Numbered from the stretch's first letter, positions 11,289-26,206 are shown. The stretch is DNA of 64,000 nt from an uncultured delta proteobacterium (GCA_963794325.1 CAWCDG010000004.1:608001-672000), one strand, 5' to 3'. The notes: a model not told the origin generated them from the letters alone. Program-made: numbers and translations.

Positions 11289-11986
11289 ATAAGTTCACGA
11301 TCAAACTCTTCGCGACCCTTCGCGAGCGCGCGCATACAGCGGAGCTGACGCGAGAATTCCCCGACGGCACCACAGTCGGGGACATCTGGCGGCAGATGGT
11401 CGTCGAATTTCCCGAGCTCGCCGGGCATCACGATTCAGTCGGCTTCGCCGTCAATCAGGAATATGTCGACAGCGGCTTCAAGCCGCGCAAGGGCGACGAG
11501 ATCGCATTCATCCCGCCGGTAAGCGGCGGCGCGGATACACTGGCATGCGTCGGCAAAATTACAATCGGACGCAACCGAATCGAGGTTGCCGCGCTTGAGC
11601 GCGAAGTCGCCGACCCTGCCGCAGGCGCGATCGTATCCTTCACCGGCACGACGCGCCGCGACAACGCAGGCCGCATCGTCATTCGCCTCGAGTACGAAGC
11701 CTACGAGCCGATGGCGCTATCCGAAATGCGCAAGCTGGCAATCGAAGCGGGCCAGCGATGGAAAATCACGCGCATCGCGATCGCTCATCGCATCGGCGTC
11801 GTCGAGATTGGCGAAACGTCGGTCGCGATCGCAGTCTCAGCGCCGCATCGAGCCGAGGCCTTCGAGGCCTGCCGCTACGCAATCGATCGCCTGAAAGAAA
11901 TCGTCCCCATTTGGAAAAAAGAACATTTCGAAGGCGGCGAAGTCTGGATCGGCTGCCAAACTTCGCATCCGCCAGCGCTTGAATAG
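11285..11986 (+). CDS. moaE: Molybdopterin synthase MoaD-MoaE fusion (MoaX-like)
   Basis: N-terminal LFATLRE...IPPVSGG followed by LEYEAY, HRIG and PIWKKE. Confidence 0.92.
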   Translation: MNKFTIKLFATLRERAHTAELTREFPDGTTVGDIWRQMVVEFPELAGHHDSVGFAVNQEYVDSGFKPRKGDEIAFIPPVSGGADTLACVGKITIGRNRIEVAALEREVADPAAGAIVSFTGTTRRDNAGRIVIRLEYEAYEPMALSEMRKLAIEAGQRWKITRIAIAHRIGVVEIGETSVAIAVSAPHRAEAFEACRYAIDRLKEIVPIWKKEHFEGGEVWIGCQTSHPPALE

Positions 11987-19435: not shown

Positions 19436-20143
19436 CTACTCCGCCAGCATTGGGTTTGGTTTTGGGAAACCTAGTTTTGTGAGGGCCTCGTCGAGGGTGC
19501 GGATGTCTTCAGACGGAGTTGGTGCGTGCTCGGCCAGATCGTCCACGCGGCGGCGCATTTCTTTTAGTTCTTGGTAGAGACTGCCGGATAGGCGCGCGAT
19601 CACGACGAAGCAAACCCACGGGATTACTACCAGCGCCACAATCGTGATGATGATCATAAGGCGGGCTTGCGACTCCGCGTTGTTGGCGACCGCTATCAGA
19701 GCCGCGTCGTCGAGGCTCATCAGGTCTGCCACGCGGCCTTGCAGTTCGCGGAGCTTCGGCTCGAGGCTGTCGTCACTTGGCGACGCGGTGCGCATCGCAT
19801 CGAACAGCGGGCGCGCGTCGTTGGCGATTTTTTCGATCAGCTCCGCCTGCTCGCGGTTCGACATGTGCTCGCGTGCGATCTCGATTTCGGAAATGAATCC
19901 GCGCTGCTGGTCCATCACGATTTGCGAGGCGTCGGGCTGGGTGCGTCCCCAATCCATCTTGTAGAGGGCATTCTCCATGCCGTGGGCCGAGCGCGCCGCC
20001 GCATCCTCGTTCTCGTGAATCTCGCGCGGCAGCGTGCCGAGAATGTGGAATGCGCCTGCAATTACGGCGGCCGCGAGCAGCAGAATCGCCGGCGCGATCG
20101 CAGCGATGAAACGGAGCTTGGTAACGATAGTCAGATTGTTCAT
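19436..20143 (-). CDS. Membrane protein with TM, periplasmic helical bundle and TM (sensor-like)
   Basis: Two hydrophobic helices flanking a helical domain; short cytoplasmic tail. Confidence 0.7.
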   Translation of the reverse strand: MNNLTIVTKLRFIAAIAPAILLLAAAVIAGAFHILGTLPREIHENEDAAARSAHGMENALYKMDWGRTQPDASQIVMDQQRGFISEIEIAREHMSNREQAELIEKIANDARPLFDAMRTASPSDDSLEPKLRELQGRVADLMSLDDAALIAVANNAESQARLMIIITIVALVVIPWVCFVVIARLSGSLYQELKEMRRRVDDLAEHAPTPSEDIRTLDEALTKLGFPKPNPMLAE

Positions 20144-20252
20144 GCGGCTTCTTTTTCGTTCCTGTGGTTGTTTCAAAAGGATGCCCGCGACGGACGCGAA
20201 AACGCAACGCCCGATGTGACCTCGCCGCGCCGGTATGCGATAATCCGCAGCG

Positions 20253-21140
20253 ATGAACTTTGCCGACCGCCTTGCGGATGCATCGCGCGCGAAAAACAGC
20301 GTCGTGGTGCTGGGTATCGATCCTCAGCTCGACGGGGCCGGCGCTCCGGGAATCCCGCATGGTTACACGCTTGCGCGCTTCTGTTGCGAAATCGTCGAGG
20401 CATGCGCGGGTTCCGCAATTGCGGTCAAGCCGCAGCTGGCGTTTTACGAGGCGCGCGGACTCGAAGGGATGCGCGCGTTTTGCGAGGTCGTCAAGCTGGC
20501 GCGGAAACTCGGACTGATTACGATCGCCGATGCGAAGCGCGGCGATATCGGCACGACATCGGCCGCTTATGCAGAAGCGTTTCTCGGCGACGGCGACTTC
20601 AATTGCGACGCGGTGACCGTCAACCCGTACCAGGGCAGCGACGCCGTGATGCCGTTTATCGCGAAGGTGAGAAGTGGCGGCCGCGGCGTGTTCGTGCTGG
20701 TGAAGACATCGAATCCATCGTCGGGCGAATTTCAGGATCTCAACGCGCCAAGTCGCCCGATTTGGGAATCGGTGGCCTCGCGAGTGAACGGATGGGGCGG
20801 CGATTTCATCGGCGATAGTGGGCTCAGCTCGATCGGCGCGGTGGTCGGCGCGACGTATCCAGTGCAGGCGCGGCGCGCGCGTGAGCTGATGCCACTCGCG
20901 ACGATCCTGGTGCCGGGATACGGCACGCAAGGTGGGACGGCGGCTGACGCGGTCGCGTCGGCGCGCGCGGACGGAAGTGGATTCATCGTGAATGCCAGTC
21001 GGAGCCTGCTCTACGCATATCGGACAAAAGATGGCGCCAGCCCGATCGAGGCAGCCGCCGAATACGCCGAGTCGATGCGCCAGGAACTTAACGCCACACT
21101 CGCCGCCCGCAGCACAGAAGGCCCGAAGCACTCCGCATAG
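20253..21140 (+). CDS. pyrF: Orotidine-5'-phosphate decarboxylase
   Basis: GIDP, DAKRGDIG.T, TSNP, VVGAT, PGYG.QGG, NASR. Confidence 0.95.
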   Translation: MNFADRLADASRAKNSVVVLGIDPQLDGAGAPGIPHGYTLARFCCEIVEACAGSAIAVKPQLAFYEARGLEGMRAFCEVVKLARKLGLITIADAKRGDIGTTSAAYAEAFLGDGDFNCDAVTVNPYQGSDAVMPFIAKVRSGGRGVFVLVKTSNPSSGEFQDLNAPSRPIWESVASRVNGWGGDFIGDSGLSSIGAVVGATYPVQARRARELMPLATILVPGYGTQGGTAADAVASARADGSGFIVNASRSLLYAYRTKDGASPIEAAAEYAESMRQELNATLAARSTEGPKHSA

Positions 21141-21225
21141 AGCCTTGCAGCACCGAACAACTGCATCTTTAGTGAAACCCTCCGCGGGTTTCACCCTTCC
21201 GCGGCAGGGGTGACCCCTGCACCCA
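21133..21225. repeat. Left direct repeat (includes the pyrF stop and a family B double hairpin)
   Basis: ccgcatagagccttgca...GTGAAACCC-N5-GGGTTTCAC...GCAGGGG-TGA-CCCCTGCACCCA; matches 24325-24417. Confidence 0.85.
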
Positions 21226-21460
21226 AGTTCATCGTCACCTGGGCATCGCGCGAACGTCGGTGCATGTCGAATCGTAAGTCGCAACAACCCACCACACGCG
21301 ACTTCTCATCGCGGCGGCGCTGGAAACAACGTGTGAACAAAAAGAGGCCTATAATCTTGTACAGGCGCGCCATTTGATCTACAAGACGAGTTGAAATCGG
21401 AAGGGGAAGACGGAAATCCAAGCACAAGCTGCTCCTCCACAGCCGCCGGAGGAGGTTAAG

Positions 21461-23905
21461 ATACTCCACTTCTCCGATCCGCATTGCGGGTACGGATTCA
21501 AGGACGACCAATGGAAGGATCTGCTGAATTGGTCGGAGAATAACAAGCCGCACTTGATAGTAGTCTCAGGCGATTTCGTCAACAGCCCTTGGCGATGGTG
21601 CTTCCGTGATGCGAAGCGAAAAGTAGAGAAGCTGCGCGAGAAAGCCGGGTCCCCTGAATGTCTTACAGTGCCGGGCAATCATGACACTCGTATCCTCGGA
21701 ATCGTTCCCGTTGCGTGGATCTATCCTTCTCTGATCACCGCCGCTGCTGTTCTGACAGCGGTAACCGCCTTCGGGATAGTGTCGTCTCGCAGTTGGTATC
21801 TTCTGATAACGGTCGCGATTCTGATCGCTCTTAGATTTGCCGTGAGCGGAACGTTGTCGGCCAACCAGGGCGTCCGTATTCTTGGAACCGTTCGAGTTGC
21901 CTGGATCGATCCCGCACTGTTCGCAGCAGCGGCCGTTCTGACTGCCACTGCTTTTGGTGTAGTGCCCTACCTCGGTTGGTACCCGCTGATTGCCATCGCT
22001 GTCTTGATCGTTCTCAGATTTGCCCTGATCGGAAAATTTGAATCCTACTTCCCTCAGGGGGAACACCTCAGAGTGTTCGAAAAACTTGGGCTTGAGACCT
22101 TCACTTTTGATTCCGCATCCGTCGGTCCGTATTGGGCACAAGGGCTGATTGCGCCTCGACAGTTTATCGATTCTAAGGAAGAGTCAAAGAAGCGAAGGGA
22201 GGCCGCTCCCGAATCCCGGCCGTTTCGCATCGGCGTACTACATCATCACGCGATGCCGATCCCTTACGAACAGGAAGCAGAGCCAATGATGGTCTTGCGT
22301 AATGCTGGCGCATTGCTTCAGCAAGCGGCCAGTCTAGGCATCTCGCTTGTCCTCCATGGCCATCGCCATCGCTTCGGCTTTTCGCGAGTGACCGTCACAG
22401 CGGACGCTGAGGACTCCAAGGAGATTGCGGTTCTATCAACGGGTTCGGCTACGGCGGGAACTGAAGAGGACCATAATTTTAATCTAATAACGGTGAACCG
22501 TTGGGGCGCAGTGAAAATCACCCCGCACTGGTCGCACAAAGGATCCCCTTTCAAAGCGGCTCCGTCGTTCTGGGCTCGCTCGTTCGAGGACGCGGCACGC
22601 CAGTTTTTTCAGGTCAATGAACAAGCTAAAGGCTGCTATTGCGCTCGCACCTACAACACATTCGACATCAACGCGGAGGGCGACGCCCAACAATCGTTGG
22701 AGTTCTGTGGGTTACGCCCAATTCGAGGGCGCGGTATGGATGAAGTGCCGGGGACAATTGGGGCAGGTTCGACGGTCGGCCATCTGGAGCGCATTCGTCT
22801 CAAAACGCTGGTTTCTTCCGCAGGTCAGCAGATAATTCCTGAAAGCCCGAGCCGAACGCTCCGCACCTACTCGGCTAAGGTCAGATTTGAGCCTCCGCTG
22901 GACTCGGCGAACGAGCCGGTCAATTTCGCGTTACGATATTACGCGATCAGCTCGTATGCGATGTCTGAAAGGCAATTCAGAGAGATGTACCCCCCAAGCC
23001 CAATACAACCGACAGAATCTTGTTACGCAACGGTCAGCAATATTCCTACCGCCGAACTCGTGATCATTGTCCGGCTGCCTGAGGGGTTTAAAATCAAAGA
23101 TAACGGGAACCCTGGGCTCTCAGTGCTTCGTCTGGACGACAGCGCCGACATCGAGTTGCAGGAAGCTTTGCGAGGCAACCTGCGTTACGATCCGATTCTT
23201 AATCTCATTACCATGCGAGTTCCCTATCCTCCGCTCGATCGCGCTTATCGTCTTGAATGGCCTCTTCCAGAGGTGTGGCCGCTCCCCAAAGGGCTTTCGA
23301 ACAAGCCGGCCAGCCTGAGCCAAAAAGGGATGACCACCAAGGCGGCCACGAAAATGCTGAAACTGACAGAGTCAGATCCATACAACAGCCCGCTGAATAA
23401 GCTTGGGCCAGAGATACTTCAAGTTGCAATTGAAGCATTCGAGCTTGCTCAGGGCGATTCCACGCTCGAGTTCAGCATAATGGCATACGACCCAGAAAAG
23501 CTCGCATTGCGTGTGGCGGCCGCCAATTTTGCTGACCAGAAAGATCCTCGATGGAGTTGGCCGCTACCGTACGGTGATGGAATCGCAGGGCGCGTTTATA
23601 AGAATAATTTCGCTATGGTGGTTGTGAGGCAATTCGCCGTAGATAATGGGTTGCCATTTTACTATCTGCCAGTTAATGACCAGTTCGTTTCCGACAACGG
23701 AGGCGAGATGCCAGCGGTGATGATCTCGGTTCCACTTTGCTGCAAAGAAAACCCAGAGGAAATGTTTGCAGTGCTGAGTATTAGTTCGAACGATCCGGCG
23801 TGCAAGCTGGTTGATGTCACAGAGGAAGAAATGCGAACAACCAACAGCAACTTTGCGCAAGCGGTGGCGAACGCTTGCCTCAGGATATTCGAGACGATAG
23901 CATGA
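21461..23905 (+). CDS. Calcineurin-like metallophosphoesterase with inserted TM hairpins, beta-rich middle domain and C-terminal GAF domain (start uncertain)
   Basis: In-frame ILHFSDPH upstream of the called TTG at 21554, then SGDFVN, PGNHD, LHHH, LHGHRH; C-terminal PYGDGIAGRVY...ISVPL...AVLSISS is GAF-like. Confidence 0.8.
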   Translation: MLHFSDPHCGYGFKDDQWKDLLNWSENNKPHLIVVSGDFVNSPWRWCFRDAKRKVEKLREKAGSPECLTVPGNHDTRILGIVPVAWIYPSLITAAAVLTAVTAFGIVSSRSWYLLITVAILIALRFAVSGTLSANQGVRILGTVRVAWIDPALFAAAAVLTATAFGVVPYLGWYPLIAIAVLIVLRFALIGKFESYFPQGEHLRVFEKLGLETFTFDSASVGPYWAQGLIAPRQFIDSKEESKKRREAAPESRPFRIGVLHHHAMPIPYEQEAEPMMVLRNAGALLQQAASLGISLVLHGHRHRFGFSRVTVTADAEDSKEIAVLSTGSATAGTEEDHNFNLITVNRWGAVKITPHWSHKGSPFKAAPSFWARSFEDAARQFFQVNEQAKGCYCARTYNTFDINAEGDAQQSLEFCGLRPIRGRGMDEVPGTIGAGSTVGHLERIRLKTLVSSAGQQIIPESPSRTLRTYSAKVRFEPPLDSANEPVNFALRYYAISSYAMSERQFREMYPPSPIQPTESCYATVSNIPTAELVIIVRLPEGFKIKDNGNPGLSVLRLDDSADIELQEALRGNLRYDPILNLITMRVPYPPLDRAYRLEWPLPEVWPLPKGLSNKPASLSQKGMTTKAATKMLKLTESDPYNSPLNKLGPEILQVAIEAFELAQGDSTLEFSIMAYDPEKLALRVAAANFADQKDPRWSWPLPYGDGIAGRVYKNNFAMVVVRQFAVDNGLPFYYLPVNDQFVSDNGGEMPAVMISVPLCCKENPEEMFAVLSISSNDPACKLVDVTEEEMRTTNSNFAQAVANACLRIFETIA

Positions 23906-24108
23906 TAGTTGAAATGACTAAGATTTCTGAATCGCTATTTGCCATGCCGATGGGGAAAGCTGACCCGCAGAAGGTGCGGGAGTTGTCCGACCGCCTTTTT
24001 GACGCCTACCTGAAGAGGAGTGGAAAACAGGCGCAGGTTATCGTAGCCGACAACAGCAATGGGTTGAACTCGGACGTTCCTGACGATTCCGGGAAGGCCA
24101 AGCCCTAG
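23902..24108 (+). CDS. Small hypothetical protein (68 aa), translationally coupled to the phosphoesterase
   Basis: ATGA start/stop overlap at 23902-23905. Confidence 0.55.
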   Translation: MIVEMTKISESLFAMPMGKADPQKVRELSDRLFDAYLKRSGKQAQVIVADNSNGLNSDVPDDSGKAKP

Positions 24109-24324
24109 TTTTTCCCGCTTCCCGTCTGTCCCCAATTTTATTACCAAGCGAGGCTCTATCTCGCAGTCTGGCCGAGCCACACCCCGCGTATCTAGGCTAC
24201 GCCCGTCCAAGCGACCTGCTGCGACAGGACGCGCGTGGGGGGTGAGTGTCAATCAGGCCGCCTTTACGGCTTTAGTAACTGAACGCGGCAATCATCGCGC
24301 GGCGGACAGATGGGCTGTCGCATA

Positions 24325-24417
24325 CCGCATAGAACCTTGCACCGCTGAAGAACTTAATCTTAGTGAAACCCGCGGTGGGTTTCACACTTCCTTCGGCAGG
24401 GGTGACCCCTGCACCCA
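24325..24417. repeat. Right direct repeat
   Basis: Diverged copy of 21133-21225 with conserved stems and a different loop. Confidence 0.85.
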
Positions 24418-24462
24418 GTGAAATCGCGAAATGTTGAGGACAACCTTTCGCTCTCCGAAGCG

Positions 24463-25518
24463 TTAGGGCTTTAGAAGGACCTTCATTGCGTTGTCTTTTT
24501 TGGCGTTGAAAATTTCGTAGGCTTTGGGGGCGTCGGTTAGAGGCATTATGTGGCTTATCAGGGGGCGCGGATCTAGCGTGCCTTTTTCTATCAGGCGGGA
24601 TAGGTCCGGGATGTGCGCGTTGATGTTGGCGAGGCCTATCTTGAAGGTCAGGTCGCGCATGAAGGCGTAGCCCATTGGGAAATTGAACGACTGGGAGGCG
24701 AAGACGCCGATTACTGAGACGGTGCCACCGCCGCGTACCGCCATTATTGCGGAGGTCAGTGCGCCATCGTTGCCTACTGCCTCGATCGTTACGTCGGCGC
24801 CGCGGCCTTCGGTGCGGTCGAGTATCGTTTGACTTGCTTTTTCAGTGTCTACCGGGAACGCACCGAGTTTGCGCGCTAGTTCCAGGCGATAGGGGATGCT
24901 GTCCACTGCGATTACTTCGGCGGGGCCGAAGAGTTTCGCACTCATCACGGCGCATAGGCCGACCGGGCCGCATCCGAAGACTGCGACCGTGTCGCCGGGG
25001 CGGATGTTGCCGTTGATCGCGCCGAAGTAACCCGTCGGCAGGATGTCGGCGAGGAAGACTGCACAGTCGTCGTCGATTGCATCGGGCAGCGGGTAGCAGG
25101 TGTAATCGGCCATTGGGACGCGCACCGCTTCGGATTGCTCGCCGCCCAGCCATCCGAGCTTGCCGGCGGCGCTCGCGCCGTAGCCGAATACCGCGGAGCC
25201 GCTCTCGAAGCATTGCGAAGGCTGCCCGCGCCGACAGAAGAAGCATCGACCGCAGGCGACCAATCCCGACACCACGACGCGCTGGCCTTTCTTCAGACGA
25301 TCGACGCCGGCGCCGACTTCCTCGATCACGCCGACGCCTTCATGGCCCAGCACGAAGCCGGGCTCGATGGGAAAATTGCCGTGATAGTAGTGGAGGTCGG
25401 AGCCGCAGATTCCGGCGCGGGTGATTCGCACGAGGGCGTCGGTGGGCGTTTTGAGTTCGGGGTCGTCGACGCGCTCGACGCGCACGTCGTGAGGTCCGTG
25501 GAAGACAGTTCCTTTCAT
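24463..25518 (-). CDS. Zinc-dependent alcohol dehydrogenase (formaldehyde dehydrogenase-like MDR)
   Basis: ICGSDLH, GHE, CG.CFFC......C, DILPTG, GCGPVG. Confidence 0.93.
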   Translation of the reverse strand: MKGTVFHGPHDVRVERVDDPELKTPTDALVRITRAGICGSDLHYYHGNFPIEPGFVLGHEGVGVIEEVGAGVDRLKKGQRVVVSGLVACGRCFFCRRGQPSQCFESGSAVFGYGASAAGKLGWLGGEQSEAVRVPMADYTCYPLPDAIDDDCAVFLADILPTGYFGAINGNIRPGDTVAVFGCGPVGLCAVMSAKLFGPAEVIAVDSIPYRLELARKLGAFPVDTEKASQTILDRTEGRGADVTIEAVGNDGALTSAIMAVRGGGTVSVIGVFASQSFNFPMGYAFMRDLTFKIGLANINAHIPDLSRLIEKGTLDPRPLISHIMPLTDAPKAYEIFNAKKDNAMKVLLKP

Positions 25519-25587
25519 TGTACCTTTGGACAACCTCCGCGCACGGGTTCGGAGAATAGGCAGAATCCTGAGTTCCGCGCAAAAGCG

Positions 25588-25640
25588 CCCTCACCCGCTC
25601 CTTCGGCGCGGCCTCTCCCGCAACAAAGCGGGCGAGGCGA
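25588..25640. repeat. REP-like palindrome, family C
   Basis: ccctcacc...cctctcccgc-N-gcgggcgagg; related copy at 35921-35982. Confidence 0.55.
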
Positions 25641-25741
25641 ATAATCAGTGGCGCGGGACGCCACATCCTAATTTGGGGCGGGTTTGCAGAGGCGGCGAAG
25701 GGCGTGGTAATTCCAGAGTTCCTGATACGTTGGAGGTTCCT

Positions 25742-26206
25742 ATGTTTCAAAACGTGAAGAAAATTCTTTCGCCGATCGATTTTTCAGAGCACTCGATGGA
25801 AGCGATGCGCGCGGCGATGGAAATGGCGAAGGACGTCGGCGCCGAAGTTCACCTGATGCATGTGATCGCGCCGCATCACATCTTCATCCCGCTGCCCCTG
25901 GCTACCAGCGGCGAACAGAGCCGCGAGCTTGCGCGTGAGGCCTCGATGATCGAGCAGGCGGAAGAAGAACTCGCGCGCATCAAGAAAGACGAGTTCGGCG
26001 ATTCGAAGAATGTCCTCACGTACGCAGTGGTCGGCCATCCGGTTCAGAAACTCGTTGACTACGCCAAAGAGCAGGGCATCGACTTGATCGTGATGGCGAC
26101 GCACGGACGCAGCGGCGCCGAGCATATGCTGCTAGGCGGAACGACCGAGAAGCTGGTGCGCAACGCCCCGTGCTCGGTCCTGGTGATCCGTCCGCGCAAA
26201 CAGTAA
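25742..26206 (+). CDS. Universal stress protein
   Basis: KILSPIDFS, DLIVMATHGRSG...LLGGTTEKLVR.APCSVL; GGAGG RBS. Confidence 0.95.
   Translation: MFQNVKKILSPIDFSEHSMEAMRAAMEMAKDVGAEVHLMHVIAPHHIFIPLPLATSGEQSRELAREASMIEQAEEELARIKKDEFGDSKNVLTYAVVGHPVQKLVDYAKEQGIDLIVMATHGRSGAEHMLLGGTTEKLVRNAPCSVLVIRPRKQ

Follow-up and report, generated by a model that had tools for sequence, protein, structure and literature searches.

A two-gene accessory module of an unnamed phosphoesterase/GAF family, present or absent beside pyrF in an uncultured delta proteobacterium

The window analyzed here is a stretch of 64,000 nucleotides (nt) from an uncultured delta proteobacterium (GCA_963794325.1, CAWCDG010000004.1:608001-672000), and we focus on a segment of it, hereafter the cassette, which is located between pyrF, the gene for orotidine-5'-phosphate decarboxylase, and a zinc-type alcohol dehydrogenase gene. 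The cassette carries two genes, one for a long protein with a predicted metallophosphoesterase domain, a beta-sandwich and a C-terminal GAF domain, and one for a small partner protein. We found that the cassette is present or absent among closely related cells and that the long protein belongs to an unnamed family whose enzyme domain appears to be related to anti-phage phosphoesterases. An earlier note, made from the sequence alone, had pointed to a low-GC block with divergent codon usage at this place. The composition agrees with that description: the GC content of the insert is 0.544 versus 0.604 for the genome (sd 0.02), within the lowest 0.94% of 1,390 windows of 3.2 kb, and the GC content at third codon positions is 0.58 in the long open reading frame (ORF) versus 0.73 in pyrF and 0.74 in the dehydrogenase gene. 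The features of the locus are listed in Table 1.

The cassette is bounded by two direct repeats of 144 nt. The repeats of ~93 bp described before are real and correspond to the last 93 nt of these units; they are, however, not att sites but consist of a pyrF tail and a repetitive extragenic palindromic (REP)-like element. Identity between the two copies differs by part, with 63 of 88 nt identical in the first part, 88% in the following 32 nt and 100% in the last 24 nt. Within the first 70 nt, 50 positions are identical, versus a best value of 33/70 over 20,000 shuffles, and the 88-nt part is found in these two copies alone. The last 56 nt of pyrF (from 21085) fall inside the presence/absence segment. 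When read in the register of copy 1, copy 2 encodes ...LNAAIIARRTDGLSHTA-stop, and the consensus of the PyrF C-terminus in 29 relatives is ...ELNAALAARRTEGLARTA. Because of this match to the PyrF C-termini of 29 relatives, both copies read as genuine PyrF tails and the 88-nt part as a duplicated pyrF 3' tail. The kinship is visible at the protein level only, as a blastn-short search of the 88-nt parts against the pyrF loci of relatives gave nothing useful. Across the genus (loci L008-L036), the final ~20 codons of pyrF are hypervariable in DNA with the peptide pattern still recognizable, and in several genomes a REP-like element directly follows the gene.

The last part of each repeat copy (at least 54 nt) belongs to a dispersed REP-like element, for which ~147 loci were counted in this genome and which is present at many loci in every genome of the genus; hence nothing ties this part to the cassette in particular. 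The sequence forms two hairpins (z -3.3) and had no match in an Rfam scan of positions 20000-26000. The element measures 54-110 nt, its two GC-rich hairpins are GTGAAACCC...GGGTTTCAC and CAGGGGTGACCCCTG, and at least two sequence sub-types occur. An explanation of the repeats as REP elements alone was considered and rejected, since the metagenomic joint described below and the tail comparison reveal the duplication of the pyrF tail.

To survey the alleles of this locus, contigs of four soil-metagenome runs from one study were placed on positions 20800-24600. In each of the four runs, one contig joins 21084 to 24277 and skips 3,192 nt. The two sides overlap by 4 nt (AACT) at this joint, and the flanks of 107-285 nt have 0-1 mismatches. 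In the empty allele, pyrF ends with tail 2. The cassette itself was represented by a single 188-nt contig in one of the four runs; it should be noted that metagenomic contigs attest the presence and not the absence of an allele, and that the surveyed runs may include the source sample of the genome, so that the filled form is not independently confirmed by them. Filled and empty forms both occur in closely related cells, which is a natural presence/absence polymorphism. Two hallmarks of integrative elements are seen here, namely a duplicated 3' end of the target gene in the form of direct repeats and an empty site in the population. On the other side, neither cassette gene has a recombinase domain by Pfam, no integrase or transposase was found within ~10 kb, and a search of positions 10000-36000 returned no tRNA.

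Table 1. Features of the pyrF locus and of the cassette, in window coordinates
Feature	Position	Strand	Evidence or remark
pyrF (orotidine-5'-phosphate decarboxylase, type 2)	20253..21140	+	TIGR02127 1.8e-77, PF00215; C-terminal tail fits genus consensus
Direct repeat copy 1	21082..21225	+	pyrF tail 1 (coding to 21140), 29-nt spacer, REP-like element 21172-21225
Presence/absence segment	21085..24276	+	3,192 nt; absent from the empty allele; GC 0.544
Phosphoesterase/transmembrane hairpin/beta-sandwich/GAF gene	21416..23905	+	probable ATC start; frame open from 21395
Metallophosphoesterase N-half, residues 20-99	21452..21691	+	motifs I-III (D28, H30, D60, N95-H96-D97); PF00149 2.1e-9
Insertion of four hydrophobic helices, residues 100-212	21692..22030	+	model, hydrophobicity, internal repeat
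Metallophosphoesterase C-half, residues 220-395	22052..22579	+	motifs IV-V (H283-285, H323, H325); PF12850 (below cut-off), NF053862 residues 248-357
Beta-sandwich middle domain, residues 398-634	22586..23296	+	VIA fold comparison
GAF-fold C-terminal domain, residues 664-836	23384..23902	+	family motif YGDGIAGR; VIA, Foldseek, profile match
Small partner gene, 64 aa from conserved ATG	23914..24108	+	alternative ATG 23902 overlaps upstream stop (ATGA)
Short putative relic of dehydrogenase gene 3' end (LLKP-stop and downstream sequence)	24240..24278	-	alignment with the cassette-dehydrogenase junction of G061 and the end of the gene in the window itself
Direct repeat copy 2	24274..24417	+	displaced pyrF tail 2 (functional tail in the empty allele), REP-like element 24363-24455
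Zinc-type alcohol dehydrogenase gene	24463..25533	-	PF08240, PF00107; synteny

Comparison with relatives of the same genus gave further information on the history of the locus. Downstream of pyrF, 27 of 29 relatives carry the DNA that in this genome is found from C4:1,020,640 onward (block B), and none of the 29 has the dehydrogenase gene within 1.5 kb of pyrF. At the dehydrogenase loci of relatives, the neighbor is block A (C4:1,011,108-1,020,452), whose last gene encodes an enoyl-CoA hydratase, in 16 of 29 cases with no cassette between; in 12 others different ORFs, mostly without a Pfam match, occupy that side (loci L038-L066). This variable region, past the dehydrogenase gene at its 3' side, may be a hotspot for accessory genes. 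In one locus (L062 of G009), a UvrD-like helicase gene begins beside the dehydrogenase gene. As judged from these comparisons, the adjacency of the cassette to pyrF is specific to this genome and reflects a rearrangement. Relative to 27 of the 29 relatives, the junction partners have been exchanged, from pyrF|B and A|dehydrogenase to pyrF|(cassette)|dehydrogenase and A|B; the exchanged joints are window 21225/21226 and G000 C4:1,020,429-1,020,674, and REP-like elements are found at both new joints, which suggests a REP-mediated rearrangement.

A second carrier genome, G061 (CAWHWI01), has the cassette at 83-86% identity between block A, with its enoyl-CoA hydratase gene, and the dehydrogenase gene, which is the right-hand neighbor of the cassette in both carriers. 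In G061, 72 nt of the 5' end of the hydratase gene are duplicated at 75% identity just left of the cassette (L002 9363-9434 and 9763-9834), the second case here in which the end of a gene is duplicated next to this cassette. The final ~35 nt of the window insert are similar to the G061 junction with the dehydrogenase gene, LLKP-stop included; with a short match of only ~30 nt, we assign this end with moderate confidence to a relic of the dehydrogenase gene. Our reading of these sequences is that the cassette moves among genus members by recombination that leaves duplicated gene ends. This could be either a cis-mobilized site-specific event or illegitimate recombination between haplotypes. A defined crossover site is favored because the duplication begins exactly at the joint, and help in trans or host recombination is favored because a recombinase is absent. 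We therefore do not regard the repeats as att sites or the segment as self-mobile; it is best explained as an accessory module of two genes that was gained by recombination. An insertion of the cassette between block A and the dehydrogenase gene had been our first reading of the locus and was dropped after the metagenomic joint and the tail comparison. Horizontal acquisition, as suggested in the earlier note, is well supported on the basis of the atypical composition, the restricted occurrence of the family (4 of 47 genomes in the genus) and the empty allele with identical flanks; the natural occurrence of the latter strengthens the case.

The long ORF extends from stop to stop over positions 21395-23905 (836 codons). 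The start of the protein deserves attention. Upstream of motif I of the phosphoesterase the frame lacks any ATG, GTG or TTG, the first canonical start being TTG 21554, and an in-frame TGA is present at 21392; the relative P0003 has Arg at that position. For this genome, the recorded product is a fragment of 539 aa (P0005). A protein of ~815 aa with five calcineurin-like motifs had been proposed before; the motifs are all present, whereas the proposed start falls on GTT. Translation probably starts at ATC 21416, giving a protein of 829 aa, because this codon follows a purine-rich stretch and aligns with Met1 of the distant relatives P0011 and P0012, eleven residues before 'EEV'. Upstream of '...EKTEIQ' the frames differ among three close relatives, and downstream of that point the window and G061 sequences are almost the same; over 21416-21480 the two differ by three synonymous substitutions and one non-synonymous substitution. 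The G061 copy has a +1 insertion at the window equivalent of 23482 (L002 ~11899-11922), which splits the gene into ORFs of 649 and 130 aa and severs the GAF domain. This may be either a true frameshift or a (long-read) assembly error.

The domain structure of the long protein was examined with an AlphaFold2 model based on a 70-sequence family alignment (predicted local distance difference test (pLDDT) 89.5, predicted template modeling score 0.84) and with a separate model of residues 395-836 (pLDDT 92.2). The five calcineurin-like motifs are HFSDPH, GD (G59-D60), GNHD (G94-D97), HHH and GHRH (G322-H325), their metal-ligand residues are invariant in the 70-sequence alignment, and the match to PF00149 reaches 38.5 bits versus a cut-off of 21.5. 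The first gene is therefore predicted, from its intact catalytic residues, to encode an active binuclear metallophosphoesterase. This part is modeled as the alpha/beta sandwich typical of the calcineurin-like superfamily and gave VIA Z-scores of 25.1 to Lmo2642 (2xmo_B), 24.9 to the YydB model, 24.6 to Rv0805 (2hy1) and 23.6 to GpdQ, and further fold matches were SMPDL3A/B and acid sphingomyelinase. A hydrophobic insertion lies between motifs III and IV and is a tandemly duplicated two-helix unit (21764-21851 and 21947-22034, 70% identity). The in-frame tandem duplication of a 61-codon unit, which doubles the hairpin, is common to P0003 and P0004 and is not shared by G061; P0059 likewise has four hydrophobic segments. 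Both halves of the enzyme must be located on the same side of the membrane, presumably in the cytoplasm, as no signal peptide is evident. The membrane anchor proposed in the earlier note stands for this protein, which has four hydrophobic helices, and not for the family as a core feature: the 70 aligned members divide into 32 with two hydrophobic segments in this insertion, 4 with four, 9 with a single one and 25 with none. Because of these 25 members, the anchor is regarded as a trait of a sub-family.

Structure prediction and fold search upheld the beta-rich middle domain and the GAF-like C-terminus that had been noticed from the sequence. The beta-sandwich is most similar to 6c26_1 (Ost1, VIA Z 13.3) and 6s7o_E (Ost1/ribophorin I, Z 12.6), followed by the N-domains of M1 aminopeptidases (Z 8-10). 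For the C-terminal domain, VIA Z-scores were 11.5 to 5w10_A (the cAMP-bound GAF domain of Lcd1, 146 residues), 10.7 to 1mc0_A (a PDE2A GAF domain) and 10.4 to 3eea_B; the Foldseek value was 2.6e-6, and a profile of the family reached the 5w10 sequence at E 0.0012. Pfam GAF models had no match to this domain at E <= 0.1. On the predicted structure, the C-terminal domain is a true GAF fold, with the six-stranded antiparallel sheet against helices that is typical of it. A motif of the NKFDE type is the cyclic-nucleotide-binding signature of GAF domains. Here K736 and N738 are conserved by eye within 'YGDGIAGRxxKxN', with no F-x3-D-E afterwards.

The second gene was also found to be a regular feature of the family. 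An ORF of 68 aa coupled to the long gene by an ATGA overlap had been reported, and it is present at 23902-24108; the start kept in relatives is ATG 23914. Of 35 full-length family loci, which represent at least four phyla, 31 have an ORF of 49-85 aa whose start is -22 to +74 nt from the stop of the long gene. The ORFs of these 31 loci were aligned (alignment A2); the G061 copy was located separately, and ORFs of 79-80 aa at L089 and L102 were excluded. A 364-aa ORF at +117 takes the place of the small ORF at L079. The mean column identity of this alignment is 14% with no invariant column, and sequence likeness is plain only within sub-groups, the anchored branch having, for example, 'MKISESLF...' and the soluble one 'GxGVKAYxF'. 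What is kept is the position, the size and a layout of N-terminal strand(s), one helix and an acidic tail. Over its first 42 codons, the gene differs from the G061 copy by 11 synonymous and 4 non-synonymous changes (dN/dS 0.08), a substitution pattern which indicates that the small ORF is a real gene under purifying selection. The small protein has no Pfam or NCBIfam match and no usable match in the protein Atlas. A PADLOC match to LmuB (E 0.011 over 33 residues) was judged to be noise.

An exhaustive phmmer search identified 1,127 cluster representatives at E <= 1e-3, of which 467 were at <= 1e-10 and 132 at <= 1e-30; a word-indexed search had returned only 21 family matches. Among the 150 matches listed, most are 710-860 aa long and aligned along most of their length. 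We therefore consider this an unnamed family with at least 132 cluster representatives. Full-length loci were found in Proteobacteria, Acidobacteriota, Verrucomicrobiota, Nitrospirota and Desulfobacterota (taxa as given in the records). Where the sources give names, these are generic ('predicted phosphodiesterase', 'CpdA', 'calcineurin-like phosphoesterase'), and the matching clusters of the protein Atlas are all 'hypothetical protein' with a Metallophos domain. Within the genus, a beta-sandwich-plus-GAF profile (E <= 1e-10) detected the family in 4 of 47 genomes (G000, G007, G013 and G061), at three loci and with 26-81% identity; the tally includes the unpublished G019 and G024, both negative. 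A tblastn search against plasmids and phages had no match at 1e-8, and IMG/VR yielded five loci, all partial with a generic phosphoesterase domain and none of full length.

To place the long protein among named systems, we compared it with curated models. Its best NCBIfam match is NF053862 (DS9_1, 'anti-phage phosphoesterase'; 1.4e-20, 73.6 bits), and DS9_1 is also the top match in 25 of the 25 other members scanned (46-84 bits). The match is limited to the phosphoesterase part, as no part of the protein aligns to positions 1-184 of this model. The DS8 model (NF053861) was also matched in 22 of these 25 members, and the CpdA, YaeI, LpxG and SbcD models all scored below DS9_1. For the class III CpdA/Icc model NF008359 (cut-off 225 bits), the window protein had no match at E <= 0.1 and other members reached at most 32.4 bits. 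DS-8 and DS-9 are experimentally validated anti-phage systems in which mutation of metallophosphatase residues abolishes defense (PMC13092281). For the PUA-Cal-HAD system, the type to which DS-9A belongs, it is reported that the PUA-like domain senses m6-dAMP, and that the Calcineurin-CE enzyme converts dNDP to dNMP under the control of the ligand-sensing domain and, in vitro, NAD+ to NMN and AMP (bioRxiv 10.64898/2026.01.15.699771). Our results suggest that the catalytic domain belongs to the same 'Calcineurin-CE'-type branch as the DS-9A and DS-8 phosphoesterases; this placement is indirect, by way of DS9_1 as the best curated match of 26 out of 26 proteins.

The module shares with DS-9A/PUA-Cal-HAD the metallophosphoesterase domain, the union of sensor and phosphoesterase in one polypeptide and a two-gene operon with a partner protein. 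In contrast, the candidate sensor here is a C-terminal GAF domain reached via a beta-sandwich, the partner is a domainless protein of ~64 aa, and this lineage has a membrane hairpin. Because the score is far below the equivalog cut-off and both a PUA-like domain and a HAD partner are missing, the module is related to the DS-9/PUA-Cal-HAD kind but is not a member of it. DS-8, a metallophosphatase fused to NACHT, shares the region of motifs I-III and has a single-protein design of effector plus regulator (PMC13092281); however, the match covers ~85 residues at 19-54 bits versus a cut-off of 790, and neither NACHT nor another NTPase domain is found here. The Rv0805/Icc/CpdA group, Lmo2642 and GpdQ have the same fold and five metal-binding motifs (Z 23-25, root mean square deviation 2.3-4.0 over 217-260 residues), whereas those proteins are of 230-440 aa and have no GAF domain, beta-sandwich, hairpin insertion or obligatory small partner. 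In PDE2/5/6, HD-GYP proteins with GAF and Lcd1, a GAF fold (Z 10.5-11.5) is likewise coupled to a phosphodiesterase-type catalytic domain, but these catalytic domains are HD-type or unrelated and the GAF domain is N-terminal. YydB of the Bacillus subtilis YydD-YydB pair (PDB 9a6c) is the top Foldseek match (1.4e-11; VIA Z 24.9 over 258 residues); it differs in its large partner protein and in having no GAF domain, and 9a6c is an integrative crosslinking/deep-learning model. In the literature searched, no metallophosphoesterase/beta-sandwich/GAF protein with a small partner is described, with the reservation that the paper defining Calcineurin-CE, which was outside the search, may list this architecture.

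The genomic neighborhoods of the family were scanned with Pfam and PADLOC over two ORFs on each side of 32 family loci (125 ORFs). Defense-type genes were detected in 8 of the 32 loci: SAVED and TIR, possibly one split gene (L068, 8952-10185, minus strand); a C5 DNA methylase (L072); CapP-like peptidases (L073, L089 and L107); PDC-M71B, 5.5e-94, preceded by the 364-aa ORF (L079, 8520-11181, plus strand); a C5 DNA methylase plus a GHKL ATPase (L086); and Uma2/PDC-S03 (L103). A further eight loci have PIN or zeta toxins, a PD-(D/E)XK nuclease, transposases or resolvases. The earlier note had proposed to test such neighborhoods for defense-island enrichment with DefenseFinder/PADLOC; as raw counts without a control set, these figures are suggestive only. 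No HAD gene was present among the 125 neighboring ORFs. With regard to the other side of the window locus, a 246-aa ORF without a significant Pfam family is located divergently upstream of pyrF (19436-20176, minus strand), and its position is kept in all 29 pyrF loci of relatives examined. In addition, G060 has two pyrF matches (C4:399994-400862 and C1:1168119-1168900; 86% and 85% identical to the window gene), which could be a duplication or the result of a mixed-strain bin.

Our preferred reading, to which we assign a probability of roughly 0.5, is that the module is a GAF-gated nucleotide-hydrolyzing conflict module. In this lineage, a membrane hairpin would have been inserted after motif III and later duplicated, and the enzyme would have been fused via the beta-sandwich and a helical linker to the C-terminal GAF domain. 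A small molecule signaling infection or stress, probably derived from a nucleotide, would bind to the GAF domain, and binding would release the phosphoesterase, which may cleave phosphoanhydride or phosphodiester bonds of nucleotides, for example NAD+, (d)NDPs or nucleotide signals. Such hydrolysis would lead to arrest of growth or of phage replication, and the small protein may be a bound regulator, as either inhibitor or adaptor. As to the substrate, the GAF ligand, the role of the partner and the defense function, we infer them only. The reading tilts towards defense because the closest curated relatives of the enzyme domain are two validated anti-phage metallophosphatases. A fuller version can be put forward tentatively, and is in our opinion possible but doubtful: the module would be the first member to be recognized of a widespread undescribed anti-phage system in which GAF, and not PUA, SAVED or CARF, senses a nucleotide-derived alarm, a Calcineurin-CE-type enzyme collapses the nucleotide pool, the ~60-aa partner acts as brake or trigger receptor, and a sub-branch became anchored through insertion and duplication of the hairpin.

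Several observations weigh against a conflict module. The DS9_1 score of 73.6 bits compares with a cut-off of 420, which means kinship at the domain level alone; the protein begins ~12 residues before motif I without a PUA-like domain, the adjacent downstream gene encodes 64-68 aa and not a HAD phosphatase, and no PADLOC model matches the long protein. The nearest solved structures (Lmo2642, Rv0805 and GpdQ) are cyclic-nucleotide and glycerophospho-diesterases, the remaining 16 of the 32 neighborhoods contain housekeeping or unidentified genes, and the window surroundings are metabolic genes with no defense island. Furthermore, the missing canonical start and the frameshift in G061 imply that function in these two genomes is not assured.

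The main alternative is ordinary signaling instead of conflict, by a one-component class III (CpdA/Rv0805-type) phosphodiesterase of second messengers, whose GAF domain would bind cAMP, cGMP or a cyclic dinucleotide and tune its own degradation. GAF-regulated phosphodiesterases are an established design. Lmo2642 (Z 25.1), Rv0805 (Z 24.6, 23-24% identity) and GpdQ are the best solved structures for the enzyme, and the cAMP-bound Lcd1 domain, with that of PDE2A, for the GAF part. Nevertheless, we consider this explanation rather unlikely, since CpdA reaches at most 32 bits in members and has no match in the window protein at E <= 0.1 whereas DS9_1 is on top in 25 of 25, CpdA-type enzymes have no obligatory small partner gene, and no linked cyclase was found in the 32 neighborhoods scanned; patchiness (4/47), recent gain or loss and atypical composition would also be unusual for a core signaling enzyme. 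The four hydrophobic helices inside the catalytic domain raise a different possibility, that of a phosphoesterase whose substrate is a lipid or is linked to one, as for LpxG/LpxH, GpdQ or SMPDL3, with the hairpin setting the active site at the inner membrane face. Weak NCBIfam matches to LpxG, the fold matches to SMPDL3A/B, acid sphingomyelinase and GpdQ, and a middle domain like the membrane-proximal domain of Ost1/ribophorin I agree with it. The LpxG scores are, however, at most 25 bits versus a cut-off of 350, and the 25 of 70 members that have no hydrophobic segment retain the beta-sandwich, the GAF domain and the small partner, which argues that the membrane is not part of the core mechanism and makes a membrane substrate quite improbable.

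Independently of what the family does, and compatible with the other readings, the gene in this genome may be a decaying remnant without full-length expression and the cassette neutral hitch-hiking DNA. The start region (no ATG, GTG or TTG before motif I, and a TGA where P0003 has Arg), the recorded product of 539 aa, the split copy in G061 and the fact that each of the four metagenome runs shows the cassette-free form are all in line with decay. We nonetheless see little prospect for it: the 836-codon frame is open with all catalytic residues intact, the region before the first canonical start is conserved with respect to G061 with mostly synonymous changes, a purine-rich stretch precedes the ATC that aligns with Met1 of distant relatives, and the small ORF is under purifying selection.

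Metallophosphatase effectors in phage defense (DS-8, DS-9 and PUA-Cal-HAD) have been demonstrated only recently, and as far as reported, their triggers and substrates are known for one system only. The family described here pairs an enzyme that probably belongs to the DS-9 branch with a different sensor fold (GAF) and a tiny conserved partner. If it is indeed defensive, it would add a new pairing of sensor and effector, possibly together with a new alarm ligand, and the soluble sub-branch offers an easy biochemical entry point. In addition, the polymorphism of filled and empty alleles, with a duplicated gene tail and no recombinase, provides a clean example of the movement of a module between close relatives.

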